DNA from: Ostreococcus lucimarinus
Lineage: Eukaryota
DNA: 64,000 nucleotides
Assembly (NCBI GenBank): GCA_000092065.1
Contig: CP000584.1
Strand: one strand, 5' to 3'
Part shown: positions 22,906-40,143 of the stretch, one piece after another
Numbering within the stretch: position 1 is the stretch's first letter
Layout: each line of letters opens with the position of its first letter
Translations under genes and position numbers: made by a program
Notes under the pieces: model-generated
Seen by the model: only the letters and a program-made list of their open reading frames with translations
What the model was told of the DNA's origin: nothing
Database searches by the model: none

Positions 22906-24825
22906 TTATGCTTTCGCCGTCGAGGTTGAAGCGCCAGACAAATCTTGAATGAGTTGTCCAGCGTTCGCGAGCGAGGCGCGCATGCCTTCTAAACCTTCCG
23001 CGCGTTTGTGTAGCGCACTTTCCTGGCATGCGCGAATAAGCACGGCGAATGTGATTTCGGTGGGCATAAGTCCATCGATGCGTTGCATATCGTCGAGCAC
23101 GCTGAGTCCTCGCGTGACTTCGCCGCTTCGCACGTGCGCCCCGATGAGAGCATTGTACACCGCAGCGTTCCGTGGAACATCCCAATAGTTGCGCATTTTC
23201 TCCATCACGGCCTCCGCTTCGAGGTCTCGACCTTGGCATCCCAAGCAGTGAATGTACGCTCCGCACATGACGGTGTGCGGGATGATTCGGTTGCGCAACA
23301 TCTCCGTCCAAACGCCGTCCGCCGCGATGTACTCTCCGCTTCGCTCGGCAGCAGATATGAGCTGCGTGAAAGTGTACGAGTCTGGCTGGATTTTCGAGCG
23401 TTTCATCTCGTCATACACTTCAGTGCATCCTTCCCAGTCCCCGTACCTCGCGTATCCGCCCAAGAGCGCGTTGAAGGTGTACGTCGTGACGATCATCGTT
23501 GAGTTGCGCATAGCGTCGAAAACTTCGTTCGCGTGCGCCATGTCGCCGGCACGTCCTGCCATGGTGATGATGGCATGCATCAACGTCGCGTCCGGACGCA
23601 CGTCGTACTTTTTAATACGTTTTGCGACCGCGTTACCTTCGATCCAGCGTCGACAATTATCGAACGCCGTCAGCGTCAACGAAAACGCTAAGCTCGTCGG
23701 TTGAACTCCAGGCTCACGCGCCATCTCGTTGAGTACGGCCAACGCCTCGTCCGGCTTCGCCTCATCTCTCAACGCCGTGAGCACGGCTGTGTAAGTGTAC
23801 AAATTTCTCGGTTTGCCCTTGTCGCCCATGTCCCGAAACACTTGATACGCCCCGCTCCAATCACTCACGCGATTGAGTGCGGCGATCACCGCAGACGCGA
23901 TCTCGTTACAAATCAAGCTCTCATCATTCTCCGCGATACCGCGCTGCCACAAGTTTTGCACCGTTCGCGTTTGCGTCAGCGTCTTCGCCGCGCTGGCGAG
24001 CGACACGTACGTAAACTCATTCGGCGCGTACCGCCCTTGCTTGCGCGACATCCACAAATACAGCGCGTGCGCGCGATCGAAGCTCCCACGCTCACCGAGC
24101 TCCTTAATGGCAAAGTTAAGCGTCGACGTGGTGAATTTAAACTTCCCACCCTCGGGATTCACCGCGCTCGCGACGACGTCCCACGCGATGCGTTCGCCCT
24201 GCGCCGGCGCGTCGATAGATTCCATCGCCCGCACGATCCGTTCCCCCGCGCGCAACGGCGGCCTCCCGCTTCCACTCGCCGCGCCATCCCCGCGTCCACC
24301 GCCTCTCGTCTCCCTTTTTTGCGCGTGCGTCGGTTCCCTCTTACTCGCGTTCACGTGCCTCTGCAGCGCCCCGTGCGACGACTTCGTCACCCTCAGATCC
24401 ACCTCCGTCGTCGCCTTCCCTCGTCCTCCCTCCCTCGCGCGCGCGTCGTTCACCGTCCGTCCTCGCGCCGGCGCGTACCTCTGCCCTCGACGCGTCCCCG
24501 TCCCTCGCGCTCGCGCGTCGCTCGCGCGTCGCGTCGTCCCGACCCCGCCGCCGCGCGTCTCGTCTCGCGTCTCCTCCCCCACCCCGCGCGCGCTCGTCCC
24601 GTCGTCCCGTCGCATCGCGCGCGCGTCCCGCGTCGTCGCGTTCGCTCGCGCGCGTCCATCGCGGTCGTCGCGCGTCGCGTCGTCGTCGCGCGTCCCGTCG
24701 GTGCCGCCGCCGGCGCGCGCGCGCGCGCGCGCGATTCGTCGCGCGCCGTCGCGTCGCGCCGTCGTCGGCGCCCGCGCGACGCGCGATGGCGCGACGCGCG
24801 TCGCCGTCGTCGCCGCCGGCGCCAT
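22906..24825 (-). CDS. Pentatricopeptide-repeat (PPR) protein with basic N-terminal presequence
   Basis: 639-aa ORF with multiple 35-aa PPR-like repeats (for example YTYTAVLTALRDEAKPDEALAVLNEM and TYTFNALLGGYARYGDWEGCTEVYDEMKRSKIQPDSYTFTQLISAAERSG). The N-terminal 150 aa are Arg/Ala/Thr-rich, consistent with a targeting peptide plus low complexity. Confidence 0.8.
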   Translation of the reverse strand: MAPAATTATRVAPSRVARAPTTARRDGARRIARARARAGGGTDGTRDDDATRDDRDGRARANATTRDARAMRRDDGTSARGVGEETRDETRGGGVGTTRRASDARARGTGTRRGQRYAPARGRTVNDARAREGGRGKATTEVDLRVTKSSHGALQRHVNASKREPTHAQKRETRGGGRGDGAASGSGRPPLRAGERIVRAMESIDAPAQGERIAWDVVASAVNPEGGKFKFTTSTLNFAIKELGERGSFDRAHALYLWMSRKQGRYAPNEFTYVSLASAAKTLTQTRTVQNLWQRGIAENDESLICNEIASAVIAALNRVSDWSGAYQVFRDMGDKGKPRNLYTYTAVLTALRDEAKPDEALAVLNEMAREPGVQPTSLAFSLTLTAFDNCRRWIEGNAVAKRIKKYDVRPDATLMHAIITMAGRAGDMAHANEVFDAMRNSTMIVTTYTFNALLGGYARYGDWEGCTEVYDEMKRSKIQPDSYTFTQLISAAERSGEYIAADGVWTEMLRNRIIPHTVMCGAYIHCLGCQGRDLEAEAVMEKMRNYWDVPRNAAVYNALIGAHVRSGEVTRGLSVLDDMQRIDGLMPTEITFAVLIRACQESALHKRAEGLEGMRASLANAGQLIQDLSGASTSTAKA

Positions 24826-25106
24826 GACGTCGGCGTCGCGGCGTCGCGCGCGCGCGTCCGCGGCGACGCGCGCGCGCGCGATTCGGATAGCGCGAGTCCC
24901 CTGACCGTTGAGTCGTGATCCGTCGGTATGCGCAAACAGTCACACACGTGTCGGCGACCGACCGCGGCTCTGTTGACATTTTTTATAGAGCGTCATTGGA
25001 GGTATTCTAGTACCTCAGCGTTCATATAAGGACGGTGCGTATACCTATTTACCAGAGAAATGGCAAAGGCCCTTTCGTCAGCACGCGTCAGCACCACGCG
25101 GCAGCA

Positions 25107-25378
25107 CGCGTTTGGTGTTACGCACGCACTGGCACTGATTGCCGCGACGCGCGCGCGTCGCCACTCGCGCGCGCGATCGACCTCGTTCGACGCGACGACG
25201 CGACGGTGAAAGACGCGCGCGACGCGCGAGACCGGCGACGCGCGAAACCGGCGACGCGATCCGCGCGCGGCGTGAGAACGTTCCGCGAACGACGCGTGCG
25301 AACTTTCGACGCGTGCGAACGACGCGAGCGAACTTTCGACGCGTGAGAGTCGCGAGCGAGGACGAAAGCGCGCGGGAA
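25107..25378. repeat. Left arm of a near-identical inverted repeat (paired with 32167..32392)
   Basis: Its reverse complement is found almost base-for-base at 32167..32392. The differences are a 26-nt and a roughly 10-nt indel. It ends about 10 bp before the ATG of paralog A (25386). Confidence 0.85.
25289..25348. repeat. Tandem duplication of a 30-nt unit inside the left inverted-repeat arm
   Basis: cgaacgacgcgtgcgaactttcgacgcgtg followed by cgaacgacgcgagcgaactttcgacgcgtg. The right arm has only about 1.1 copies. Confidence 0.7.
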
Positions 25379-25385
25379 AAGCGGC

Positions 25386-28300
25386 ATGACGTCGTCTTCG
25401 AAGGGCTCGCGCGATGGTGGCGTCGCGCGGCGCGTCGCGGTGTTCGCCGCGACGGCGATCGTGGCGTACGCGGTGGCGGGCGTGGCGACGACCAGAGAGG
25501 GACTGGCGCGAGTGGTGCTCTCGACGACGAAGACGAACGATGGACGCGCGCCGATGTGGGCGAAGGAAGGACACGCGCCGCTGAAGGCGTTCTTCAACGA
25601 TGCGATGGCTGACGCGCCGACGGGATTGACGCGCGACGAGCGCCGCGCTGCGCGGGCGCTGCGCGCCGCGCGCAAAGCGGCGCGCGCCGGCAACGGGCAA
25701 TCGGAGACGACGTTCACTCTTTCAAAGTCGTGGAAGTTGCATCGCTTGGCCAAGCTCGGGATCACGGAGGTATTGACGGATGATGACGAAGAGCCGAACG
25801 CGCTCTCCGATGTGTCGTTCACGAGCGCGCAGACCAAGGGCGCGCAGACGGCGTTTGATTTCTCGGAGGAGGAAGCAGAAGCCGCACCACAAAATCAAAC
25901 TGAAGATTTTCTCGCGGACAATTACGACGCTGAAGAAAAGATCGAGACTAGCGTTGATTCGGTGATTACCTCGTCGCCGGATGCGGTGTTTGCGGCACAG
26001 TTTGGGAATCACACATGTGTACAACAGTGCGCCGACGACGCCGACGTCGCGCAAATCATCGGCGGTTCCGGCTGCACTGCGCTTCAAGCGAACGACAACG
26101 TTTTCAAGTGCTTGAACGAAAAGTGTTCATGCGAGGAAGCCGTGGCTTTACACGAAACTTTGCTCTACGTTTGTGACGCGAATGAGGTTGGGAAGAACTT
26201 TTCATTCGTTCGACTCAACCAATTCTACGTCGACACTTTGGATGACGCGATCGACGAGTGCCAGGTCACCGATCTTCTTGACTCAGTCGTTTCTTCTCAG
26301 AACACGTACTGCGACAGTAACGAAGATCAAGACTCGACTATCTCGAATGTCACCGCCGCTGCGCTGGGTCAAGGATGCCACCGCGGCGGCGACCGCCCAA
26401 AGGTGGCCAATTGCATAGTCCACAAGTACTACTTTGCACGCTGCGACTACTGGGCCGGTTGCAGACGCGGATGCAACTCCTGGGATTATCCCATCCGTTG
26501 GAAGCATTGCGGCTGGTGCTGTCATCGATGTGTAAACTTCCCGTGCGGGGTGCATTGCCGTTGTAGATGTCGGCGCTGGCGCTGTCGCTGCAGCTGCCAC
26601 ACGAGATGGTGCCGTCGTTGCTGGCATTTACCAACGTATCGACCGAGGTGCCGCAAGGATAGATATTATCGGCAAAATAAATGCGATATTTGCTCGCCCG
26701 GCTACCGCGTAACACGCAATGGACGATGTCAACTTTACGGATGGATTCAAGCCATAGTCGACGGCATCAACGCCGTGAAGCAAGGGATCAAATACATCAA
26801 AAATGTCATCCCGAACACAATTGACAACATTAAGAACATGTTCACGAACGTCAAGACGCAAGCGAATACGGCGGTTACGAAACTGACAGAGCTCGCCGAT
26901 CAAATCGCGCAGAAAGTGACGGATCTCGCCGATGAAGTGGTTTCCAGTGTCATCTTCATCAAGCCGGCGACTTTCTTGCAAGCAATCGAGAGCGCCCTCC
27001 TTTCGTGTGACAACGCTCAATCCGCGCTCGGCTCCACCAAAATCAGCGCACATGAAGCAACGTCCCTTGGATTGCTCGATCCGGCGAATTCACACGTGCT
27101 TGAGGAAAAGCTTGGTGATATTTTTGGCAAATCCCGTAGCGGAGTTTCTCCCATCCAAGAATGGCGGTCTGATGATACGTCTTCGCTCGGAGTCGGACAG
27201 TGTGTGGCTCATTGCGGCGCTGGGATGTGTCTGCCCACGACAATACCGGCAATGACATACGAAACGCCTGATCACGGTATGCCCTTTCCGGATTCTATCC
27301 ATTTGGTCAAATATAAGCCGGACGCGGTGATCGTCAACGTGGCGGCGAACCCCGTCTCAGTATGCGTCAAGATGACGGAATTCAGCATCCCTACGACCGC
27401 CGCCGAATCAATCGTCAATGCTCTGGTTGATCAAATCAAACCAATCCTACTCGCTGGCGTCGATGAAGTCAAACAGTGGGGGAAGAACGCCGCAAAAGGC
27501 ATGAAAAACGCAGCCGTCGCCGTCGAAGACGGCGCAAACGACATGGCTGGATTTGTCCAAGGGATCCCGGATAAGCTCAACAATCTGGTAGGTCGACGTC
27601 GGTTACTCGCCGATGCCACGCCGTCAGACCAAGATCTCATCGACGTCTCGTTCGCGCTCGGTCGTCTGATGGCTCAGCAAAACAGGCTTCGTGAAAAAAC
27701 CGAAGCAGACGTCAGGCTCTCCTTGGATGAGCTCCGAGCGAGGCTCCAAGCGCTTCCGCACTTTTCGCACGCTCATCCGACGCACAAGGGCGCGGCAAAT
27801 CACGCAACGGCCAATCTTGGTGGTAATTTTCTCAGTGACGCGAGCGACGGACTCGTGAACGCGATGAAGCTCGCCTTCCAAGACATGAAGAACATGAAGA
27901 TGATTGCTCGCTCGACACTGGTCTTGGATTTGAACGTCGAGTTCAACACCGATGCGACTGCCTATCGTTTCGACGATCTCTTGAACAACGGTGAAGGGTA
28001 CACGATGATGATCGATCAAAGCATCCCGATCGGTCTGGGGTTCACCATCGCCATCACCGGTCGGCTTGATGTTAAGATGCCTTACTACTTCATCGCAGAA
28101 AGTGCCGGTAACTTTGCCTACAACGTGGCGTCGAACGATTTCTGGGTCGAGTTCGGCTCCGACGAAGGTAGCGGCGTGCTGAGACTTAACGACAACCCGC
28201 AGGTGACTATCACGCCGTCTGGCACTGGGCAAAGCTCGGTATCGTTTAAGGTATCGACTACTCTTCGTGCGAGTGATTTCAAGGTTTCCGTGTGCTTTGG

Positions 28301-28751
28301 CGACATCATTTGCTCTGGCATCGAGGCGCAGTTCTTCCAAAGTGTCAGCGCTGGCGCGGACAGTCTATCGGCTACGACGGATGAGGAATGTTTCAATGGC
28401 GCGACGGAATTCAAAGCCATGTTCGCCGACACCTTCACCGGGTATTACGACGAAAACAGCGGCGAGTGCCGACTGCGCCAACGCGGCAGCATCAACGCCG
28501 CCGGTCAATACGTCGAAATCCCCAAACCCGATGTTAACGTTGCCTTCACCACCGTCGTGCTCGGTGACAAGGATTGTGTCAGTCCCGTCTCGCTCTACGA
28601 ATACTCCGCCCGCGAGTCTTGGCTCTCGGACGCACAGATGGCTACTTTAACCAGCAAAACGTGCGCGGCGCCGGCTGACGGCGACGGCGACTTTGTCACG
28701 TCGTCGTGTTCGGCATGCGACACCGCCCGCGCGCAGGGCTGCCACTCATAG
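25386..28751 (+). CDS. Large cysteine-rich secreted or signal-anchored protein, paralog A (unknown family)
   Basis: 1121-aa ORF with an N-terminal hydrophobic anchor (VAVFAATAIVAYAVAGVATT) and an acidic linker. A Cys-rich domain follows (CADDADVAQIIGGSGC...KCSCEEAVALHETLLYVCDA), then a helical Asn/Asp/Ile-rich middle and a C-terminal beta-like domain with conserved Cys, and PYYFIAESAGNF and YVEIPKP motifs. It is paralogous to the minus-strand gene at 28890..32150. It contains one anomalous Cys/Arg/Trp segment (see findings). Confidence 0.75.
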   Translation: MTSSSKGSRDGGVARRVAVFAATAIVAYAVAGVATTREGLARVVLSTTKTNDGRAPMWAKEGHAPLKAFFNDAMADAPTGLTRDERRAARALRAARKAARAGNGQSETTFTLSKSWKLHRLAKLGITEVLTDDDEEPNALSDVSFTSAQTKGAQTAFDFSEEEAEAAPQNQTEDFLADNYDAEEKIETSVDSVITSSPDAVFAAQFGNHTCVQQCADDADVAQIIGGSGCTALQANDNVFKCLNEKCSCEEAVALHETLLYVCDANEVGKNFSFVRLNQFYVDTLDDAIDECQVTDLLDSVVSSQNTYCDSNEDQDSTISNVTAAALGQGCHRGGDRPKVANCIVHKYYFARCDYWAGCRRGCNSWDYPIRWKHCGWCCHRCVNFPCGVHCRCRCRRWRCRCSCHTRWCRRCWHLPTYRPRCRKDRYYRQNKCDICSPGYRVTRNGRCQLYGWIQAIVDGINAVKQGIKYIKNVIPNTIDNIKNMFTNVKTQANTAVTKLTELADQIAQKVTDLADEVVSSVIFIKPATFLQAIESALLSCDNAQSALGSTKISAHEATSLGLLDPANSHVLEEKLGDIFGKSRSGVSPIQEWRSDDTSSLGVGQCVAHCGAGMCLPTTIPAMTYETPDHGMPFPDSIHLVKYKPDAVIVNVAANPVSVCVKMTEFSIPTTAAESIVNALVDQIKPILLAGVDEVKQWGKNAAKGMKNAAVAVEDGANDMAGFVQGIPDKLNNLVGRRRLLADATPSDQDLIDVSFALGRLMAQQNRLREKTEADVRLSLDELRARLQALPHFSHAHPTHKGAANHATANLGGNFLSDASDGLVNAMKLAFQDMKNMKMIARSTLVLDLNVEFNTDATAYRFDDLLNNGEGYTMMIDQSIPIGLGFTIAITGRLDVKMPYYFIAESAGNFAYNVASNDFWVEFGSDEGSGVLRLNDNPQVTITPSGTGQSSVSFKVSTTLRASDFKVSVCFGDIICSGIEAQFFQSVSAGADSLSATTDEECFNGATEFKAMFADTFTGYYDENSGECRLRQRGSINAAGQYVEIPKPDVNVAFTTVVLGDKDCVSPVSLYEYSARESWLSDAQMATLTSKTCAAPADGDGDFVTSSCSACDTARAQGCHS

Positions 28752-28889
28752 CGTTGTGACGCACAATTTTCACACGCGCAAAGATCTCGATTGCGCTTTT
28801 CATTTCGTCTATCCTACGGTGTAATGAAATATTCAGTAGTGCACACTTTTGATTAAAACGTGAAAATTGGCCCTGCGCGCACGAAACGG

Positions 28890-31800
28890 CTAGGCGTAGA
28901 TCGGGCAGTCGGTCGGACACGCGTCGACAGCGGCGCCACAATCCTCCACAGGATCTGTGCTGGCAGCGCACGACGTCGAATGGCTGGATCTATACTGTGC
29001 GCGGCTCGTCATGTCCAAGAGCGACAGAGGCTGGACGCACTCGGTGTCGCCGCGTACTTCGGTGATAATATCGGTAGTCACGAACGGTTTGGGATACTCG
29101 ACGTACAAGCCGGCGCCGACGACGTTGGCACTTGCGCTGCATTGGTTTGAAGTTGTCGGGTAGGACGTGAGGAATTCGCCAAAGACGGGAGACAAACCGG
29201 TGCGTCCGTTGTAACAAGAGGAGTCCGTGGACGCGCCGACCCCGTCGTTTAGAACGGAATCCGCGCCGAATTGAATCCCTTGTTTGATTGTGACTTCGGG
29301 GCCGATGCAGATGATGCCGCCCCAGCAGAGTTTGATGTGGAATTCTTCGAGCGCTGCCACGACGCCGACCTTGAGGCTCGAGGAAATCGTGCCGTCGATC
29401 GTCGGCGTGATGTCCAAGCTTGCCGAAGACTTAGGCGCGACGGTGGCGACGCCGTCGGAGATGCTCACCGTGTAACCAACATTTTTACCCTTGATCTTGT
29501 ACCCGAGCTTTCCGCTGCCTTCTGCGAGCAAGAAATATGGGAGTTGAACTTTCGCGACGCCTCCGACGACCAAAACGAATCCAGTCGGGCCGATGGGTGT
29601 GATCTTGAACAATTCCTGATTGGCTTGGCCGTCAAGGAGATCACCTTCTTGAAAGAGAGCTCCTTTGGCGTCGAATTCCAATGTTTGCTCAAAATCGACG
29701 TCGAAAGAAACGCCAGTGGAGATCGTATTCAAGGCGCCTCGAAGAACTGATATGATACCGTCCTCGATGACGCTGAAGTCGAGCTTGAATCCGCCGAGGT
29801 GGGCGATGTCTCGGCGCGCTCTAGATTTGGGATCCGCCATAGGTTTCATGTTGTGCATGTGCGGATCATTCGAAACCAAGTTATGAATTTCGGCAATAGC
29901 GCTCAACGCCTTCTTCTGCATCAAGTTGACGCGTTGGATGTACTCCTCGACGATGTGTCCAAGCACCAGCGCTCGTTCGTGTTTGGTTAGTTGCTCGAAT
30001 TCTTGCGTGTCACCAGACAAGAGCTTACGTCCAAAGCCCGGGACGTTAATGTTTGCGACGGTCGATTTCACCGACGAAAAGATGTCCGTGAGCGATTCGC
30101 CGATTTCGTTCACGAAGTCGGTGATTCCATCGGCCCAACCCGTGATGGCTTTGACTGCGTCATCGACGATCGGCTCGACAACTTTGACGAACTCAAGTGC
30201 GACGTCGTTCAACACACTCATGTCCAACCCAAAATGCGTTACCCCGGCGCATGCTTTGATGTTGCCATCGACAAATGCCTTGACGTAATCGGGTTGGAAA
30301 CGCTCAAACCGAGGCTCGTCCGGGACAGAGCTCGTTTTGGTGAGTGAGAAAACGCCATCTGAGTAATCTGGGTGCTTTTTTAGGATGTCCTTGACGTCGA
30401 GCTGGTAGCACAGCGCGCCTGCGCAAAGATTGTGACTGCACGAACCTCCGAGTGGAGCGCTTTCAGAAGGTGCGGCGTAGTGCGATGCGATTTCCACACC
30501 GTATACTGCCTCCAACACGCGCTTGCGCACGTCGTGGTGCCGCCTCGACTTCACTGTTTTTCGATCGGCGCCCAAAGACGCGCTGTCGTCGTTGTTGCAT
30601 CCCGCAGCCTGACTGAGTCCGTTCATGAGGGCGTTGGCATTCGGCACAACGGCTGACACTTCGTCATAAACCAAATCGGCGAGTTTTGAGCCGAGATCTG
30701 CGAGGTCACCCGCGAGAGACGCGATCGCGTTCCCGATGCCGTGTATGTCTTCGATGAGATCATTCTTGAAATCGTTTATGGTATCCAAACCATCGTCGAT
30801 CTTGTTCTTCAAAGAGTCCAGCTCTGACGCCCAGTCGTCCCAGAATGCTCCGAGTGCAGCTACGCGAAGCTTAGCTCCGAGCTCAGGGTCCGACGTATCG
30901 ATCGACGCTTTGAACATCTCTTCAGCTTGCTTCAAGTCCTCATCCGTCATGTTGAAGTCTTTCTTCAAAGCTTCAGTATCCTCGACGCACGCCCCGGAGC
31001 TGTCCATCTTGAAATATTGATCGCACGAGTCGCACTCACGCGTCTCGCTGTTCATCAACCAGCCGTACTCGCACTCGATGCACTCACCTTTGCGGGTTCC
31101 TTCGTACGCGCACGGCATGGAGTATGCTTCATGCGTGCTCGTGCAAATCCTACGTGTCCAAGTGCAGCGAGAACACGTATCACCATCGCACGTATCGCAG
31201 GTGTATGCCGGGCAGCTCCATTTCTCTGTCGTGCTGCCGTGTACACGAAGAATACCCGTGCGCGACGAGTTGGCGCCGCACATTGGTGCCTCATATGAGC
31301 AAGTAGAGATGACGTTAGCTTGAGCGACGCAGTGCGCCGGCGCCGGATCATCCGCTGGCAACGAGCAGGGCGCGGCCTTAATATTGCCAGAGTCGTCCGT
31401 GTCTCGGATAGGGGTCAGAATGCTGAGCACACTGTGAGCCTTTCCACAGTGCGCTTCGACCGCCGAGACGGTTTCGTCCAGAAAATTGGCGTATTCGGGG
31501 CCGTTAAACTTTCCGTCCGCCTTCATCGGCGCGTCGCAAATGTAAAACAACGCCTCGATGAGTTGATACGATTCGTGACAACCGCACGCGTCGTGAATGC
31601 ACGAGATGAGCTCGTCATTGTCACTACTCACGGCGTGATCGCACGTCGACTCGACGTCAATGTCGCCGCCGCACGTCGCCGCGCACGGGAACGTCAACTT
31701 TAAATCGGAAAATATCCTACCCGGCGACGTCGCATCGTACGAATTCACCTGATTGTACATAATATCCGTTTCCGTATCGTCGGACGGATCGCCCACGACG

Positions 31801-32150
31801 TTCCCAGAGCCCTCGGTTGAGATTACCAGCGCGTCCGCGTCGACGTTCGCGCTCGCCGTCGTCCCCAAGCTCGGCGCGCTCGGCGTCGACCACGCCGTCG
31901 TCTCCGGCCTCGCCGCTGTCGTCGTCGTTGGAATCCATCGTCCCACGCTCATCTTCCACGTCGTTTCCCCGCCGTCGAGCGCGAGCGCGACGCCCACGGT
32001 CACGCCCAGCACGCACGCGAGCGCGTCCAATCCCCAGCCGCGTCCGCGTCCTCGCGTCCGCGTCTCCCCCAACAACGGCGTGGACGCGTCCGCGCCCGAA
32101 AATCCGAGGCGCGCTCGAGATCCGAGACCCGCGCCCGAATACCGACCCAT
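28890..32150 (-). CDS. Large cysteine-rich secreted or signal-anchored protein, paralog B (unknown family)
   Basis: 1086-aa ORF with the same architecture as paralog A. It has an N-terminal anchor (LDALACVLGVTVGVALAL), a Cys-rich domain (CGGDIDVESTC...CGCHESYQLIEALFYICDA), a helical middle and a C-terminal domain (LPYFLLAEGSGKLGY, YVEYPKP, multiple conserved Cys). It is convergent with A, and their stops are 139 bp apart. Confidence 0.75.
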   Translation of the reverse strand: MGRYSGAGLGSRARLGFSGADASTPLLGETRTRGRGRGWGLDALACVLGVTVGVALALDGGETTWKMSVGRWIPTTTTAARPETTAWSTPSAPSLGTTASANVDADALVISTEGSGNVVGDPSDDTETDIMYNQVNSYDATSPGRIFSDLKLTFPCAATCGGDIDVESTCDHAVSSDNDELISCIHDACGCHESYQLIEALFYICDAPMKADGKFNGPEYANFLDETVSAVEAHCGKAHSVLSILTPIRDTDDSGNIKAAPCSLPADDPAPAHCVAQANVISTCSYEAPMCGANSSRTGILRVHGSTTEKWSCPAYTCDTCDGDTCSRCTWTRRICTSTHEAYSMPCAYEGTRKGECIECEYGWLMNSETRECDSCDQYFKMDSSGACVEDTEALKKDFNMTDEDLKQAEEMFKASIDTSDPELGAKLRVAALGAFWDDWASELDSLKNKIDDGLDTINDFKNDLIEDIHGIGNAIASLAGDLADLGSKLADLVYDEVSAVVPNANALMNGLSQAAGCNNDDSASLGADRKTVKSRRHHDVRKRVLEAVYGVEIASHYAAPSESAPLGGSCSHNLCAGALCYQLDVKDILKKHPDYSDGVFSLTKTSSVPDEPRFERFQPDYVKAFVDGNIKACAGVTHFGLDMSVLNDVALEFVKVVEPIVDDAVKAITGWADGITDFVNEIGESLTDIFSSVKSTVANINVPGFGRKLLSGDTQEFEQLTKHERALVLGHIVEEYIQRVNLMQKKALSAIAEIHNLVSNDPHMHNMKPMADPKSRARRDIAHLGGFKLDFSVIEDGIISVLRGALNTISTGVSFDVDFEQTLEFDAKGALFQEGDLLDGQANQELFKITPIGPTGFVLVVGGVAKVQLPYFLLAEGSGKLGYKIKGKNVGYTVSISDGVATVAPKSSASLDITPTIDGTISSSLKVGVVAALEEFHIKLCWGGIICIGPEVTIKQGIQFGADSVLNDGVGASTDSSCYNGRTGLSPVFGEFLTSYPTTSNQCSASANVVGAGLYVEYPKPFVTTDIITEVRGDTECVQPLSLLDMTSRAQYRSSHSTSCAASTDPVEDCGAAVDACPTDCPIYA

Positions 32151-32166
32151 CTCTCACGTCCTCGCG

Positions 32167-32392
32167 TTCCCGCGCGCTTTCGTCCTCGCTCGCGTCGTTC
32201 GCACGCGTCGAAAGTTCGCACGCGTCGTTCGCGGAACGTTCTCACGCCGCGCGCGGATCGCGTCGCCGGTTTCGCGCGTCGCCGGTCGCGCGCGTCTTTC
32301 ACCGTCGCGTCGTCGCGTCGAACGAGGTCGATCGCGCGCGCGAGTGGCGACGCGCGCGCGCGTCGCGGCAATCGAGCGTAACACCAAACGCG
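32167..32392. repeat. Right arm of the inverted repeat (pairs with 25107..25378)
   Basis: It is the reverse complement of the left arm. This is confirmed because the + ORF at 31817 and the minus ORF at 24993 encode the same peptide string (LASFARVESSHASFAERSHAARGSRRRFRASPV) across the two arms. The arm abuts the ATG of paralog B (32150). Confidence 0.85.
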
Positions 32393-32545
32393 CGGTCGGT
32401 CGCCGAAATCGTAAAGCACGTCGCACTGCGTGCGCATACCGACGGATCACGACTCAACGGTCCGGGGACTCGACGCCGACGCGAAAACGACCGTTGGCGT
32501 CGCGGCGACGCGCGCGGCGACGCGACACACGACGACGCGCGCGCG

Positions 32546-35500
32546 ATGCGCGCGAATCGCACGCCGACGACGATGCGAAAACGCGCGTTCGGCGCCGAGG
32601 TGACGAACTCTCCCGACGCGCGCGACGCGCGCGATGGAGGTCGAACGACGACGCCGAACGACGCGAAGACGCGCGCGATGTCGACGCCGAGAGGGACGGG
32701 CGCGGTGACGCCGCGAGCGACGCTGACGCCGCGAGCGAGCGCGCTGCTGCGAGATCAGCGACAGTTGGCGTCGCCGCTTCGAGCGGCGATATCGCCGACG
32801 CGACCGAGCTCGATGGTGAAGTCGAGCGTGAAGTCGAGCGAGAGCGCGACGAAGCGGGACGCGGCGCGGTTGCGCGAGCTGAATTCGATGCTGTTGAAAC
32901 AGTTGTCGACGGCGCGGTCGGCGGCGGCGGAGGCGGAGAGCGCGAGGGAGACACTCGGGGAGGCGATGGCGCGGGAGGTGGCGAAGTCGAAGACGCTGGC
33001 GAAGGATGTGGAGGATAAGGCGGAGGCGCTGCGCGCGGCGGCGAAGCGAGCGAAGAAGGAAAGTAAGGATTCGGCGGAGGACGTCAAGGCGGAGGCGGAG
33101 CGATTGCGAACGTTGAACGCGAGGCTTATGAAGGAGGTTTCCATCGCGAGAGCGGTGGTGAAGGCTCGAGAGCACGAGGAGGCGACTTTGAAGGCAATCG
33201 CGGGGAAATCGGACGAGCGCGCCAACGCGCTCGAGGCTGAGATTGACGCCAAGCAACGGACGCTCGAAAGAGTTCAACTCGCGCTAGTTTCGGCGACAGA
33301 GCGAGCTGCGGATAGCTTGCGAGCAAATATGAAGGTGGAGAAGCTCGCCGAGACGAACGCGGTGTTGATGGGCGAGTTGGCTGCGTTGCGCGAATCCGCG
33401 GCGAGCGATTCCCAGGCGCTGCGCGCGCAAATCGCCGCCAAATCGGATGCCTTGATCGAGGCCAAGGCCGATCTCGCGGCCGCGGAGGACGAGGTCAATG
33501 CGCTGAGCGGCGCGAAATCCGACGTTGATAACCTTCGTTCTCTGAACGCGACGCTGATGCAGCAAATAAAGTCTCTTCGTTTCAAGGCTGACGAGGCGCT
33601 CGACGTCTCTCGCGCGCTCGAGGGCAAGGAACGCGAATTGGCCAAGGTGTGCGATGATCTGAAGGTTGCTGAAGACGCCAAGAGCGCGGCTGAGGACGAC
33701 GTCATGAAGTTGCGACAACTCAACGTGACGTTGCTTCAACAAATCTCCGCGCTTAAGGAGAATTCAGAGGTGGACGGAGCGGCGCTCGAAGCCAAGCAGT
33801 CGGAACTCGAGGCGGCGCAAATGGCGCTCGAACTCGTCGAAGAGGAACAAGAGCGCACGCAGAACGACGTCACGAAGCTTCGCGAATTGAACACCGTCAT
33901 CATGTCTCAAGTCAAAACGCTGAAGAAGTCGTCCTTGGATGATCGAGCAGCGTTCAAGGCGGACATGGATGCCAAGAATGCCGAGTTGTCGCGCGCGCGT
34001 GTCGAACTCGCGCGACTCGAACAGTCCAACGGCACGTCCGAAAGTGCTCTCGAAAAGGCTCGCATGAGACAAGCGGCGTTGGACGGCGAAGTCACGACTT
34101 TGAAAAAGATTGCTGAAGAGAACATGGCGACGAACGCGCATCTCACCGGCCAAATCGAAGCAAAACAGCTCGAACTCGCCGATGTCAAGGAATCTCTCGC
34201 GACGGCCGAGGCCAAGGCTGCGAAACTCGAAGCGGCAGAATATGACGTATCCAAGCTTCGCGAGCTGAACTCTGTCCTCATCGCGCAAGTGAAGACGTTG
34301 CGATCCGTCGAAGCGGAGAATGCGTCTCTCACCGCGGCCTTGCGCTCGCGCTCAGCTGAGCTCGAAAAAGCGCAGCTTCAACTCGCTGCCGCCGAGCGTG
34401 CCAAGGCTACAGGTGAAAAGGTTTCGGAAAGTGAAATCGCCAACTTGCGCGAGCTCAACACGCGCATCATCCAGCGCATGGGCGAGGTAAAGGAGGAGCA
34501 GGAAAAGAAGTTCCAACAACTCATCGACACGAAGACGCTTGAGCTTGCGAGTGTCAAGGCGGAGCTGGCAGAGGCGACGAAGGAGCTCGCCATCGGTCGC
34601 AAAGATGCGATGGCGCTCGAAAAATCGCTCGAAAAGTTGAGAACGATGAATGCAGAGTTGAACGGGTCGATCAAGGCGTTGGAAGCGGAGATTGAGGGCG
34701 AGAAGAAAGCGACGCTTGAGATGCGCCAGGCGATTCTCGACGCGCAGGCAGAGTGCGCTAGTCTCAAAGGGCGTTTGTCGGCGAAAGACGACGAACTCGA
34801 ATCTGCATGGTCTGCGCTTATGTGTGTGAACGCCGATTTGAAACACGCTTTGCACGACGCCACGGGTATGCGTGCTCTGGCGGAGAAGCGCCACGGAGAG
34901 CTCGAAGAGGCGAACGTCAACGTCGATCGCTTGCGTGAGCTGAATCACATGATGATTGAACGTCTGCACAACGCCAAGAAGGCTGCGCTCGAAGCGGAGG
35001 CATTGAACGCTGAATTTGCCGCCGCGCGTACTCAAGCCGAAGTTACGGTTCGTTCAGAAGAGGCGAAGGTTGCCGCGCTTGAACAAAAGCTCAAGGAGAA
35101 GGACGAGGAGTACGCGACGACGACGCTCGCGCTGCGCGCCGAGATGGAATCCGGAAACTCAGCCTCCGCGCAACGTTTGGCCAATCTCCAAGCGCAAATG
35201 CATTCCCAGACCCACTCGCTTGAGCGCCAACTCGAGTACGCCAACTTGGACCTGCAAAAGGTTCAACGATCGGAGGCGGCGCACATTGAAGACCAACGGC
35301 GAAGCGCCGAAGAAATCGAATCTCTCGTCGCGCAACTCGAGCTCACGGAGAGCGACGCGAAGAAGGACGCCAACGCGATGAACAAACATATCTTCGCCCT
35401 CCAATCCAAGGTAGCCGCGCACGAAGCATCCAATAAAGCCTTGACGAAGAAGTTGAACTCGTCCAAAGCTGAGATCAAAGCGCTCGAGCAAAAGCTCGCC

Positions 35501-36400
35501 GACGCGCAAAGCACGTCGAGCAAGAGATGGACTGATTTGGCTGCGGCATCGCGAGATTTACAAGAAGCGTTTACAGCCAACAAAGTTAAAGATACCATCA
35601 TTGCAACCATGCGCACAGAACTCAAGGAGCTCACGAACACGGCTGAGTACTTCACCCGACTCGCGCGAGAGCACGGCGAAGAGGCGAAAGACTTCAGCGT
35701 CAAGTTATCGCAAGCGGAGGGTCAAGTCGTCTCGCAAGAGAAACGAATCGGACACCTCTGCGCGTCGTTGGAAGAAACCGAGATCGCGCGAAACGAGTTG
35801 TCCCAGAAGGTTGTCGCGCTCGAGCGCAAGGGTGGCGTCGCAGAGATGACCATTCGCGCCGCTGCTGAGCACCTGTATAAAGCGAACGAACGCGCGCGGT
35901 CTTTGGAGCACCAACTCAAATCGGAACGCGCTGATTTTGAGCGAACGCAAGCGGCGTTGACTGAAACGCTGAACGCTGCCGAACGTTCTATGGAAGCCAA
36001 CATGCAAATCATTTGCGACCTCGAAGCCAAGTACCAAGAAACTTTGCAGCTCTTACTCGTCGAGCGCGAGCACAGTGCCGAAGTGCGCGACGAGATGCGC
36101 AAGGAACTTCAATTCGTCAACGAAGAGCTCGACGCCACGTCTGCGGATCTCGAAATCATGATTGAACGGAATAACTCTGGCATCTTGCTCAAAGTCGCGG
36201 ACAACGCGATGTGCAAGCTTGTGTTCTCCGCCGCGCCAAAGATTTCTGCGCGCGGCGTCAAAGCCGTCATTCGTCTCGGCATGCTCGGCGGTATCGCCGC
36301 GTTGATTGGTCAAACCGTGCGTCAACTCAAGACTAAGGTGGTCGACAAAGCCACCTCGCAAACGCCGCGCGCGTCTTTCCGCTTCGCCTTCCGAGGTTGA
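32546..36400 (+). CDS. Tail-anchored long coiled-coil protein (golgin-like) with about 10 internal tandem repeats
   Basis: The frame is open from 31817, but upstream of about 32440 it crosses the inverted repeat, so the start is set at the first ATG beyond it (32546; others lie at 32573 and 32678). There are about 1280 aa of heptad-rich sequence. A motif L-R-E/T/S-L-N-x-x-L/I-x-x-Q/E recurs every 50 to 60 aa (LRELNSMLLKQ, LRTLNARLMKE, LRSLNATLMQQ, LRQLNVTLLQQ, LRELNTVIMSQ, LRELNSVLIAQ, LRELNTRIIQR, LRTMNAELNGS, LRELNHMMIER). There is a C-terminal hydrophobic anchor (AVIRLGMLGGIAALIGQTV). Confidence 0.75.
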   Translation: MRANRTPTTMRKRAFGAEVTNSPDARDARDGGRTTTPNDAKTRAMSTPRGTGAVTPRATLTPRASALLRDQRQLASPLRAAISPTRPSSMVKSSVKSSESATKRDAARLRELNSMLLKQLSTARSAAAEAESARETLGEAMAREVAKSKTLAKDVEDKAEALRAAAKRAKKESKDSAEDVKAEAERLRTLNARLMKEVSIARAVVKAREHEEATLKAIAGKSDERANALEAEIDAKQRTLERVQLALVSATERAADSLRANMKVEKLAETNAVLMGELAALRESAASDSQALRAQIAAKSDALIEAKADLAAAEDEVNALSGAKSDVDNLRSLNATLMQQIKSLRFKADEALDVSRALEGKERELAKVCDDLKVAEDAKSAAEDDVMKLRQLNVTLLQQISALKENSEVDGAALEAKQSELEAAQMALELVEEEQERTQNDVTKLRELNTVIMSQVKTLKKSSLDDRAAFKADMDAKNAELSRARVELARLEQSNGTSESALEKARMRQAALDGEVTTLKKIAEENMATNAHLTGQIEAKQLELADVKESLATAEAKAAKLEAAEYDVSKLRELNSVLIAQVKTLRSVEAENASLTAALRSRSAELEKAQLQLAAAERAKATGEKVSESEIANLRELNTRIIQRMGEVKEEQEKKFQQLIDTKTLELASVKAELAEATKELAIGRKDAMALEKSLEKLRTMNAELNGSIKALEAEIEGEKKATLEMRQAILDAQAECASLKGRLSAKDDELESAWSALMCVNADLKHALHDATGMRALAEKRHGELEEANVNVDRLRELNHMMIERLHNAKKAALEAEALNAEFAAARTQAEVTVRSEEAKVAALEQKLKEKDEEYATTTLALRAEMESGNSASAQRLANLQAQMHSQTHSLERQLEYANLDLQKVQRSEAAHIEDQRRSAEEIESLVAQLELTESDAKKDANAMNKHIFALQSKVAAHEASNKALTKKLNSSKAEIKALEQKLADAQSTSSKRWTDLAAASRDLQEAFTANKVKDTIIATMRTELKELTNTAEYFTRLAREHGEEAKDFSVKLSQAEGQVVSQEKRIGHLCASLEETEIARNELSQKVVALERKGGVAEMTIRAAAEHLYKANERARSLEHQLKSERADFERTQAALTETLNAAERSMEANMQIICDLEAKYQETLQLLLVEREHSAEVRDEMRKELQFVNEELDATSADLEIMIERNNSGILLKVADNAMCKLVFSAAPKISARGVKAVIRLGMLGGIAALIGQTVRQLKTKVVDKATSQTPRASFRFAFRG

Positions 36401-38100: not shown

Positions 38101-40143
38101 GTGCGCGTGTATTCGACGGGTGGTGACTCAACGCGAGGGGGGTCGGGCGCGCGCGACGCCCGGGTGTTTCCGACACTCGCCGACGCGCGCGCGATGCTCG
38201 ACCTCGTCGCGGGCGTCGCGCTGTGGGCGAGCCCGCCGGCGATCAAGTTCCCGGGACTCGTCGTCCTCGGCGTCGCGCGACGCGCGAGGGCGCGAAAGCG
38301 CGACGATGGGACGCACCGACGCGATGACGACGACGCGGGCGCGCGCGACCGCGCGGTCGATCTGCGCTGGCGCGACGTCGCGCTGACGATTCGCGACAAG
38401 AAAACGACGCGCGCGAGGCGCGTGCTCGAGGCGTGCGACGGCGAGGCCAGGGCGGGGCGATTGCTGGCGATCATGGGACCGAGCGGGGCGGGGAAGTCGT
38501 CGCTGCTGAACGCGCTCGCGGGACAGACGCCGCGGAGCGCGAGGGCGACGCTGCGAGGCGCGCTCGAGGCGAACGGACGGCGCGCGAACGGTGGGGGTGG
38601 GTTTAAAAAGGCGTACGTGCAGCAGGAGGATGCGTTTTACTCGATGCTGACGTGTCGGGAGACGCTGGAGACGGCGGCGCGGTTGGGAGGCGCGAGCGAC
38701 GTGCGAGCGACGACGGAGCGGTTGTTGAACGATCTTGGGTTGGTGGCGTGCGCGGATACGCGCGTGGGAGACGGGAAAACGCGCGGGATCAGCGGAGGAG
38801 AGAAGAAGCGGTTGGCGCTTGGGGTGCAGTTGGTTGGCGCGCCGAGCGTGATTTTCGCCGACGAACCGACGAGCGGGTTGGATTCTTTCCAAGCCGAGCG
38901 CGTGATGAAGACGCTGTCCAAATTGGCGCGCGAGGGTGGTAAAACCATCGTTTGTTCGATTCATCAGCCGCGATCGAGCATCGTGGATTTGTTCGATGAC
39001 TTGTACTTGCTCGCCGGCGGGCGATGCGCGTACTTTGGACCGATGAAGTCGGCGCGCGAGTGGTTCGGATCCACCGCCGGTCACGCGATACCGTCCGACG
39101 TGAACGTGGCGGAGTATCTCATCGATCTCGTGAGTATCGATGCGACGTCGGCGGAGACGATAACGGCGACGGAAAAGCGCGTCGCGAGCATCGTCGCCGC
39201 GATGAAGTCGTCGCCGCCGAGGCTCGCCGACGCGAGCGCGGACGCCGGGAAGCGAGACTCTAGCGACGCTTTACCCGTCGTCGACGGCAAGCGCGTCGGA
39301 TTTTGGGGACAGTTTCCGTTACTTTTAACGCGTTCCTGGCGACAAGTCACTCGGGACAAGGCGACGAACCGGGTGCGTTTCATGACGTCGCTCAACAGCG
39401 CCATGGTTTTCGGATCCATCTTTTGGAAAATGTCGCTGAAACAAACCGCAATTCAGGACCGAATGGGCCTGCTGCAAGTCTCCGCGATCAACGCCGCGAT
39501 GAGCGCGTTGATGAAAACCCTCACCGCGTTCACGAAGGAGAAGGTCATCGTGAACAGAGAGCGCGCGAGCGCGGCGTACGGCGTCTTGCCGTATTTCACG
39601 TCAAAGCTCGTCGCCGAGCTGCCAATCGGCGCCTTCTTTCCACTCGCCTTCGGCGCGTGCGTGTACCCGATGGCTGGCTTGCATCCGACGCTCGGGCACT
39701 TTGCACGATTTTGCGGCATCTTGACTCTCGAATCGTTCTCCTCCGCGGCGATGGGATTGGCCATCAGCTCCGTGGCGCCGAGCACCGACGCCGCCGTCGC
39801 CATGGGACCCGCGGTCATGGTTCTCTTCATCGTCTTCGGTGGTTACTACGTCAACCCCGACAACGTCCCGATCTATTTCAAGTGGCTCAACAAGTGTTCG
39901 CTCATTAAGTGGGCGTTCCAAGGCTTGTGCGTCAACGAGTTCACCGGGCTGGAGTTTGAAGCCAAGCGCCCCTTCGACCAAAAAACCGGCGAAGACGTTC
40001 TCGCGCGTCTCTCTTTCCAAGACGCCACCGCGATGTCGAGCCTCAAGGCGCAGGGAAACATTCTTTCGTTCCTGTACTTGTTGACGCTATATTTGCTCGA
40101 CACCACTGGACCCAAGTTTTGCGTCATGGAGCCTCCGGAATAA
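38101..40143 (+). CDS. ABCG-family half-transporter (NBD then TMD)
   Basis: Walker A (MGPSGAGKSSLLNALAG), ABC signature (ISGGEKKRLALGVQLV), Walker B (VIFADEPTSGLDS) and H-loop (CSIHQPRS), followed by six predicted transmembrane helices. The start is uncertain, at 38101 or 38194. Confidence 0.88.
   Translation: MRVYSTGGDSTRGGSGARDARVFPTLADARAMLDLVAGVALWASPPAIKFPGLVVLGVARRARARKRDDGTHRRDDDDAGARDRAVDLRWRDVALTIRDKKTTRARRVLEACDGEARAGRLLAIMGPSGAGKSSLLNALAGQTPRSARATLRGALEANGRRANGGGGFKKAYVQQEDAFYSMLTCRETLETAARLGGASDVRATTERLLNDLGLVACADTRVGDGKTRGISGGEKKRLALGVQLVGAPSVIFADEPTSGLDSFQAERVMKTLSKLAREGGKTIVCSIHQPRSSIVDLFDDLYLLAGGRCAYFGPMKSAREWFGSTAGHAIPSDVNVAEYLIDLVSIDATSAETITATEKRVASIVAAMKSSPPRLADASADAGKRDSSDALPVVDGKRVGFWGQFPLLLTRSWRQVTRDKATNRVRFMTSLNSAMVFGSIFWKMSLKQTAIQDRMGLLQVSAINAAMSALMKTLTAFTKEKVIVNRERASAAYGVLPYFTSKLVAELPIGAFFPLAFGACVYPMAGLHPTLGHFARFCGILTLESFSSAAMGLAISSVAPSTDAAVAMGPAVMVLFIVFGGYYVNPDNVPIYFKWLNKCSLIKWAFQGLCVNEFTGLEFEAKRPFDQKTGEDVLARLSFQDATAMSSLKAQGNILSFLYLLTLYLLDTTGPKFCVMEPPE

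Follow-up and report, generated by a model that had tools for sequence, protein, structure and literature searches.

Mirror-image upstream arms of two convergent, strongly diverged paralogs in Ostreococcus lucimarinus: a probable promoter module apparently kept alike between its two copies

The locus described here raises the question of how two genes can differ strongly throughout their coding sequences and still share almost the same sequence ahead of their start codons. It lies in a stretch of 64,000 nucleotides (nt) of Ostreococcus lucimarinus contig CP000584.1 (assembly GCA_000092065.1), hereafter the window, and consists of two tail-to-tail paralogs, gene A on the plus strand and gene B on the minus strand, each preceded by one arm of an inverted repeat. 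A first-pass annotation had read these arms as the promoters of the two genes and had offered gene conversion or shared constraint as the reason for their likeness; most of that interpretation holds. The explanation that we consider probable is that the arms are copies of a duplicated promoter and 5'-leader module, homogenised between the two arms, which would co-regulate a functionally paired A-type and B-type gene. The arms and the genes between them are made up as follows.

24893..24940, plus strand: left-arm distal block (CGAGTCCCCTGACCGTTGAGTCGTGATCCGTCGGTATGCGCA...), where the repeat ends on its outer side, 67 nt away from the putative start codon of the PPR gene (24825); present in both arms of other strains
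24941..25106, plus strand: left-arm spacer, AT-rich at about 24976-25090, specific to the left arm and polymorphic among strains
25107..25137, plus strand: left-arm motif zone CGCGTTTGGTGTTACGC, which holds the YAACACC/GGTGTTR motif (19 nt, one mismatch against 32392-32374), followed by 11 arm-specific nt
25138..25378, plus strand: left-arm core, 241 nt, putative proximal promoter and 5' leader of gene A
25221..25229 and 25323..25350, plus strand: 9-nt and 28-nt insertions in the left core (A-specific here), with a tandem duplication at 25285..25344
25386..28751, plus strand: gene A, 1121 residues, XP_001417142.1 'predicted protein', A-type; an orphan family member by exhaustive hidden Markov model search
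28752..28889: AT-rich spacer of 138 nt that separates the two convergent genes at their 3' ends, recognised by reading the sequence
28890..32150, minus strand: gene B, 1086 residues, B-type with the GAFWDDW motif, grouping with family proteins P0108, P0109 and P0201
32167..32373, minus strand: right-arm core, 207 nt, putative proximal promoter and 5' leader of gene B, delimited by global alignment with the left core
32374..32392, minus strand: right-arm motif zone (GCGTAACACCAAACGCG on the plus strand), placed by alignment and motif search
32393..32424, minus strand: right-arm spacer, short in the window strain and the site of a 100-147-nt insertion in other strains
32425..32472, minus strand: right-arm distal block, where the repeat ends on its outer side; the coiled-coil gene starts about 75-100 nt away (ATG at 32546 or 32573)

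Both a repeat search and a blastn self-comparison recovered the inverted repeat where it had first been placed, at 25107-25378 and 32167-32392. Global alignment of 25138-25378 with 32373-32167 gave 204 aligned columns with 204 matches and 0 mismatches, the differences being 2 nt extra in the B arm (32361-32362) and the 9-nt and 28-nt insertions of the A arm. The repeat extends farther than had been described, through the mismatch in the motif zone and a hypervariable spacer to the 48-nt distal block, which the annotation had not listed and in which the two copies (24893-24940 and 32425-32472) differ at 3 positions (94% identity). The AT-rich spacer of about 165 nt between distal block and core in the left arm has no equivalent in the right arm. 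In their complete extent the arms therefore span 24893-25378 (486 nt) and 32167-32472 (306 nt), with uninterrupted stretches of 111 nt and 82 nt at 98-99%. A 30-nt tandem duplication described earlier in the left arm is indeed present, its units at 25285-25314 and 25315-25344 being 97% identical. The arms are the sole long high-identity repeat in the window, the other matches being CG-rich and of low complexity or tandem repeats within coding sequence.

At their inner ends the arms reach nearly to the start codons, stopping 7 nt short of the ATG of gene A (25386) and 16 nt short of that of gene B (32150); gene B has an in-frame TGA two codons before its ATG and so cannot be extended upstream. 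The arms thus form the complete 5' flanks of two convergent paralogs, and the likeness is limited to this non-coding module, as blastn found no DNA similarity between A and B outside the arms. The proteins themselves are 22-23% identical from end to end over about 990 residues (E = 5e-53), in agreement with the strong coding divergence first reported. As almost nothing else lies upstream of either ATG, the arms would carry the promoters of both genes, whatever the origin of the arms, and they would contain the 5' untranslated regions as well. In neither core does the sense strand contain an ATG, as would suit a 5' leader, but this is not significant alone. E2F/MCB sites (TTTSSCGC, ACGCGT) were considered as a feature of the arms and set aside; they occur there without enrichment over the remainder of the window.

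An assembly error had been named as a possible refutation. Metagenome and Logan assemblies made independently contain the same arm structure. In addition, Logan unitigs of 6914 bp (25302..32215) end at both sides exactly 30 nt within the identical stretch, which matches the branching of a k=31 graph at a true repeat and excludes an assembly artefact. As a practical effect, the arms break short-read assemblies of the locus. Contig L001 was considered as a transcript marking the 5' untranslated region and rejected, its 5' end at 25302 coinciding with the ends of four genomic Logan unitigs, that is, with the k=31 branch point.

The evidence that the two copies are kept alike comes from the comparison of strains. 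Strain-specific variants just outside the core are common to both arms of one genome in three of the four strains, which supports homogenisation between the arms. Strain CCE9901, of whose nuclear DNA the window is a part, carries GCGTTTGGTGTTACGC in both arms, its motif reading GTTTGGTGTTAC in each; a 50-nt stretch peculiar to its strain (CGCGTAACACCACACGCGTAACACCAAACGCACTGTTGGCGCTG...) is identical in the two arms of the JACLAB010005148 contig; and both arms of Ga0206682_10000043 carry CACACAAATCGCGYAACACCAAACG. The nearest relative of an A arm is the B arm of its own contig (79/90), other A arms reaching at most 70/90, and some strains have the 9-nt indel in the A arm alone, others in both (the B arms of L025, L026 and L027 have the 9 nt). 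Within the core, two single-base differences were found across 10 aligned arms, and one more in the B arm of L006. The likeness of the two arms is unevenly distributed along the module, mismatches amounting to 0/204 in the core versus 3/48 in the distal block (Fisher p = 0.0066), while the spacers are unrelated and highly polymorphic.

The site between distal block and core is an indel hotspot in both arms (24941-25106; L005:7151-7636; L025:2063-2186; L026:8475-8623). The left-arm spacer measures about 165 nt in the window, about 480 nt in L005 and 59 nt, of unrelated sequence, in L004; the right-arm spacer is either about 30 nt or consists of 100-147 nt of unrelated sequence. The AT-rich spacer of the left arm had no match in Rfam and no viral match in IMG/VR.

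A short motif, YAACACC/GGTGTTR, recurs at the outer border of the core and may be a transcription-factor site; we treat it as a lead and not as proof. Within the window TGGTGTTAC is found in the two arms alone, and the motif is present in each arm of each strain, its orientation flipped between strains. It also stands upstream of family genes in three other lineages, with eight copies in the shared intergenic region of the O. tauri-like pair described below, further copies upstream of the family genes P0107 and P0108, and five copies arranged as an imperfect palindrome of about 84 nt in the shared intergenic region of contig L019. Overall, 18 copies fall in 2.4 kb of family upstream zones, versus a density of about 0.18 per kb in other sequence. 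L026, L028 and L029 have GCGTAACACCAAACGC at the place where CCE9901 has the 16-nt element GCGTTTGGTGTTACGC, and each of these two sequences is the exact reverse complement of the other. Judged by these contigs, the motif has flipped in situ, in both arms, between CCE9901 and the other strains.

Whether a shared upstream module would make functional sense can be judged from the arrangement of the family in other Ostreococcus lineages. The long family members fall into an A-type (A, P0107 and P0110), marked by a Cys/Arg/Trp-rich block, and a B-type (B, P0108, P0109 and P0201), marked by GAFWDDW; P0109 belongs to the same cluster as O. tauri XP_022839997.1. This split, by the grouping of the proteins, is older than the separation of the Ostreococcus lineages. 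As both types are found in other Ostreococcus lineages, the arms are no remnant of the gene duplication that produced A and B; one upstream module was copied after A and B had diverged. On the Tara contigs L019-L024, B-type P0201 (76% identical to O. tauri P0109) and A-type P0110 stand head to head, 192 nt apart as called, and on the O. tauri-like contigs L030-L032 an A-type gene (80% identical to P0110) and a B-type gene are likewise head to head. No flanking inverted repeats were found around either of these pairs. The layout of a pair with one shared promoter is thus present in L019-L024 and L030-L032, and absent from the window, where the genes are tail to tail. A fourth organism has P0107 and P0108 on different contigs, and the upstream regions of these two genes share a 60-nt block (87%) and a 37-nt block with CGCGCGTAACACC. 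The head-to-head pairs, each on one intergenic region in two other Ostreococcus lineages, lend indirect support to co-regulation of A and B; the two proteins may act together and need co-expression. These family promoters also indicate how fast such sequence can change, for the genes of L019 and L030 are about 76% identical in DNA, while their shared intergenic regions cannot be aligned at all; promoters of the family evidently diverge fast when unassisted. Identity between the O. lucimarinus proteins and the pairs of the other two lineages is about 27-34%, as against 76-80% between those two pairs themselves. The pair of O. lucimarinus may perhaps be a second, deeply diverged one.

We propose the following mechanism. 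Each copy of the module would consist, from the outside inwards, of the distal block, the variable spacer, the YAACACC motif zone and the core of 207-241 nt that reaches almost to the ATG, and the two mirror-image copies would give the A-type and the B-type gene the same promoter and 5' leader. The pair would be a functional unit, which in the O. tauri-like and one other Ostreococcus lineage would be served by its single shared intergenic region. The tail-to-tail arrangement of O. lucimarinus would make a single shared promoter impossible, and two copies would substitute for it. Intrachromosomal gene conversion between the arms would keep the copies alike, probably with further help from selection on the common leader or promoter.

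Several points weigh against this proposal. The terms promoter and co-expression are both inferences. The co-variation between arms rests on metagenome contigs, and assemblers can blur near-identical repeats; moreover, strain L004 has no co-variation in the motif zone. The 28-nt insertion is constant and A-specific in all strains, which implies that conversion tracts stop short of covering the entire arm. Over most of the locus the strains differ little, by about 0.4-0.9%, and the invariance of the core among strains is therefore no proof of constraint by itself. Finally, YAACACC was defined post hoc from the same sequences in which it was counted, so that its enrichment is inflated, and several of its copies are in tandem.

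The alternatives turn in large part on how the segment came to its present site, which is bounded by two further genes.

22906..24825, minus strand: PPR gene, divergent from A, assigned by Pfam PPR families and by synteny
32546..36400, plus strand: coiled-coil gene of about 1280 residues without a Pfam family, divergent from B; orthologues of 1277-1282 residues adjoin the PPR gene in L033-L035

Orthologues of the flanking PPR gene at 88%, 84% and 82% identity lie on three long contigs (L033-L035) whose collinearity with the window extends from about 13.5 kb to 42 kb. On all three (3/3) the coiled-coil and PPR genes are immediate head-to-head neighbours without the A-B pair, and the part of the window at about 24,407-32,718 corresponds to about 1.0-1.4 kb between the flanking alignments and no more. 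The adjacency of these two genes in three related lineages indicates that A, B and their arms are a lineage-specific insertion of roughly 7.6 kb, the boundaries of which are approximate, and the outer repeat ends lie within tens of nucleotides of them. Promoter copying, a cut palindromic promoter and the ends of a cassette are candidate origins of the arms at this insertion. A search for counterparts of the core in the PPR/coiled-coil intergenic regions of the related lineages and in family promoters elsewhere returned CG-rich low-complexity matches and nothing else. A similar element stands upstream of the coiled-coil gene in the related lineages, and the CCGTTGAG element of the distal block may derive from it. 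Two candidate observations at the insertion were discarded. A direct duplication of about 60 nt around the whole insertion (24826-24885 versus 32488-32560) does not stand out in similarity from many other CG-rich matches of the window, and contig L036, which holds the closest non-conspecific relative of the PPR gene (89%), is no synteny witness, as it has no match to the window beyond 24229, continues into unrelated sequence and is probably chimeric (L036:1-900).

The lineage-specific insertion leaves room for the arms simply to be young, formed as an inverted duplication when A and B were inserted, with too little time since then to diverge and no call for conversion or constraint. The absence of the segment from the syntenic site in three related lineages, the identity of at least 99% among all conspecific contigs over most of the locus and the position of the outer repeat ends beside the insertion boundaries would all agree with recent formation. 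We nevertheless regard this explanation as unlikely, since a shared age would not give so uneven a divergence, from 0/204 in the core through 3/48 in the distal block to unrelated spacers, and cannot yield the changes next to the core, including the flipped motif, that both arms have in common in three of the four strains.

It is somewhat more doubtful still that the arms are the terminal inverted repeats or recombination ends of a mobile gene-pair cassette, with a structural and not a regulatory role. The repeat does bracket an inserted segment; the A-type/B-type pair has different neighbouring genes in each of three lineages (the window, L019 and L030); and the palindrome of motif copies in L019 would suit such an origin. 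However, reading of the sequence at the outer ends revealed no target-site duplication, the left flank ending in ...GGATAGCG and the right flank beginning with ACGCCGACG..., and a Pfam scan of 20 neighbouring open reading frames found no transposase or recombinase; A and B are the sole cargo. A 37-mer from the core occurs no more than five times in the JGI metagenome collection and always as an arm, namely twice (both arms) in each of a 108-kb and a 39-kb contig and once (the B arm) in a short contig; no third copy was found. The pairs of the other lineages have no such flanking repeats, no viral relative of gene A was found in IMG/VR, and the arms, as the sole upstream sequence of A and B, would bear the promoters regardless of origin. 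An 'inside-out' form of this explanation, which we hold to be just as improbable, would begin with a head-to-head pair around a palindromic bidirectional promoter, cut at its fragile centre and, by way of a circular or tandem intermediate, re-inserted where the PPR and coiled-coil genes meet, such that the promoter halves became the outer inverted repeats. It would explain both why the repeat starts at the insertion boundaries and why it ends at the two start codons, and, if true, it would turn this surface-protein pair, fast-evolving and hypervariable between strains, into a cassette that relocates within Ostreococcus genomes.

A flip-flop switch, raised in the first-pass annotation, in which the 6.8-kb A-B segment is reversed, is very unlikely; 111 nt of uninterrupted identity in arms about 6.8 kb apart are formally a substrate for inversion, but a crossover inside the arms would leave each gene its own proximal module with nothing switched, the Pfam scan found no recombinase nearby, and all five contigs that span a junction (L004, L005 and L028 on the left, L025 and L026 on the right; a small sample, from at least four strains) have the orientation of the window, with the PPR gene beside A and B beside the coiled-coil gene. 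A conserved structured RNA or small gene within each arm deserves as little credence, for although the core is nearly invariant over all arms and strains, Rfam gave no family at the gathering threshold or at an E of 1 or less, folding was no better than that of dinucleotide shuffles (z = -0.09 for the right core and +0.26 for the left core), the arms share no open reading frame, and the core has no counterpart in any other lineage.

The duplicated and homogenised promoter module consequently remains the explanation that we prefer, and it draws attention to the proteins that it would serve. Gene A is laid out as an N-terminal hydrophobic anchor, a Cys/Arg/Trp-rich block, long helices and a beta-rich C-terminal domain; A and B each begin with a hydrophobic segment and contain 39-45 cysteines. 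A Pfam scan of A and B returned no family at its gathering score, and neither a sequence match in the PDB nor an informative fold match was obtained for the family. The AlphaFold model of A, with a pLDDT (predicted local distance difference test score) of 59.7 overall and 80-89 in the C-terminal domain, is confident solely in the helical parts and that domain, and its structural matches were generic helical bundles and nothing else. A word-indexed protein search with A alone or with a six-sequence profile found nothing beyond A's own cluster, and an exhaustive profile search of 1.84 billion representatives found 39 family clusters in total.

Between conspecific strains, the Cys/Arg/Trp-rich block of A (26400-26750, about residues 340-450) is hypervariable, with 33 substitutions in one 250-nt bin; the JACLAB010005148 strain has 28 amino-acid differences between residues 339 and 447, and a 4-residue indel distinguishes the 1121-residue and 1125-residue forms of A. 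The remainder of A and the whole of B differ by less than 1% between strains. The block looks like a recognition surface under diversifying selection. A motif of the form small residue-x-Leu-Gly (AALG, SALG, ASLG, AHLG, ANLG and others) occurs five times each in A and B, and the Leu-Gly positions of A at 548-549, 602 and 811-812 are invariant or nearly so across 26 family members; these motifs could be processing sites or domain linkers. The locus brings to light a family of large, Cys-rich proteins of Mamiellophyceae, membrane-bound or secreted and so far uncharacterised, that come in A-type/B-type pairs. An identity of about 30% between congeneric lineages together with a strain-hypervariable region in A is typical of recognition molecules, such as those of mating or virus interaction.

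The open reading frames near the locus encode cullin, RecQ, C2-domain, PP2A-B, RHD3, SMC, PPR, ABC-G, polo kinase, Sec1 and other eukaryotic proteins, with no visible introns. Around the locus, intergenic DNA is richer in G+C than coding DNA, the reverse of the usual pattern; the intergenic DNA of 24001-25000 and 32001-33000 has a G+C content of 0.70-0.71 with long (CG)n runs, and adjacent coding sequence has 0.53-0.56. The segment 32505-32552, which spans the coiled-coil ATG at 32546, is 77% identical to 38153-38200 near the 5' end of an ABC-transporter open reading frame (GCGAC...CGACGCGCGCGCGATGC), a 48-nt likeness that may reflect a start context common to the two genes. At 62635-62864 and 63464-64000 lie tandem repeats (periods of 15/42 nt and of 66 nt) that reach the end of the window.

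How does this arrangement compare with known systems? It resembles the terminal inverted repeats of DNA transposons in having inverted repeats at both ends of a segment that is inserted relative to related genomes, and it differs from them in the absence of a target-site duplication, a transposase and further copies, and in arms that are far longer than typical terminal inverted repeats and abut start codons. The var genes of Plasmodium, with their ups classes, likewise have alike 5' flanks before strongly diverged coding sequences, for which recombination or conversion is invoked. Surface-protein families of the var type are large, dispersed and expressed in a mutually exclusive manner, whereas the present locus has two copies that are probably both needed at once. 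Bidirectional promoters of head-to-head pairs place two functionally linked neighbours under one regulatory sequence, and this is exactly the layout of the A/B family in the O. tauri-like and one other Ostreococcus lineage; in the window, by contrast, the genes are tail to tail and the shared sequence is present as two mirror-image copies about 6.8 kb apart.

A close likeness in layout is to the long, near-perfect and actively maintained inverted repeats at paralogous gene pairs of Caenorhabditis (Zhao, Chang, Varley & Stormo 2007, PMC1803023). Both systems have a long near-perfect inverted repeat at a convergent homologous pair that takes in the complete intergenic sequence, and both give evidence that the copies are actively kept alike, here through concerted variation in three of the four strains. 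The nematode repeats are reported to include the homologous genes and to be conserved across species, whereas ours comprise the upstream module with the coding sequences excluded, and three related lineages are without the whole segment at this site. The Ostreococcus locus is a variant of known phenomena, namely the concerted evolution of inverted repeats and bidirectional promoters, and it offers a clean natural case in which regulatory, and not coding, sequence would evolve in concert. Anciently diverged partners without the option of a shared bidirectional promoter would instead carry two homogenised copies of one module, and the very compact, transformable genomes of Ostreococcus make the case readily testable.

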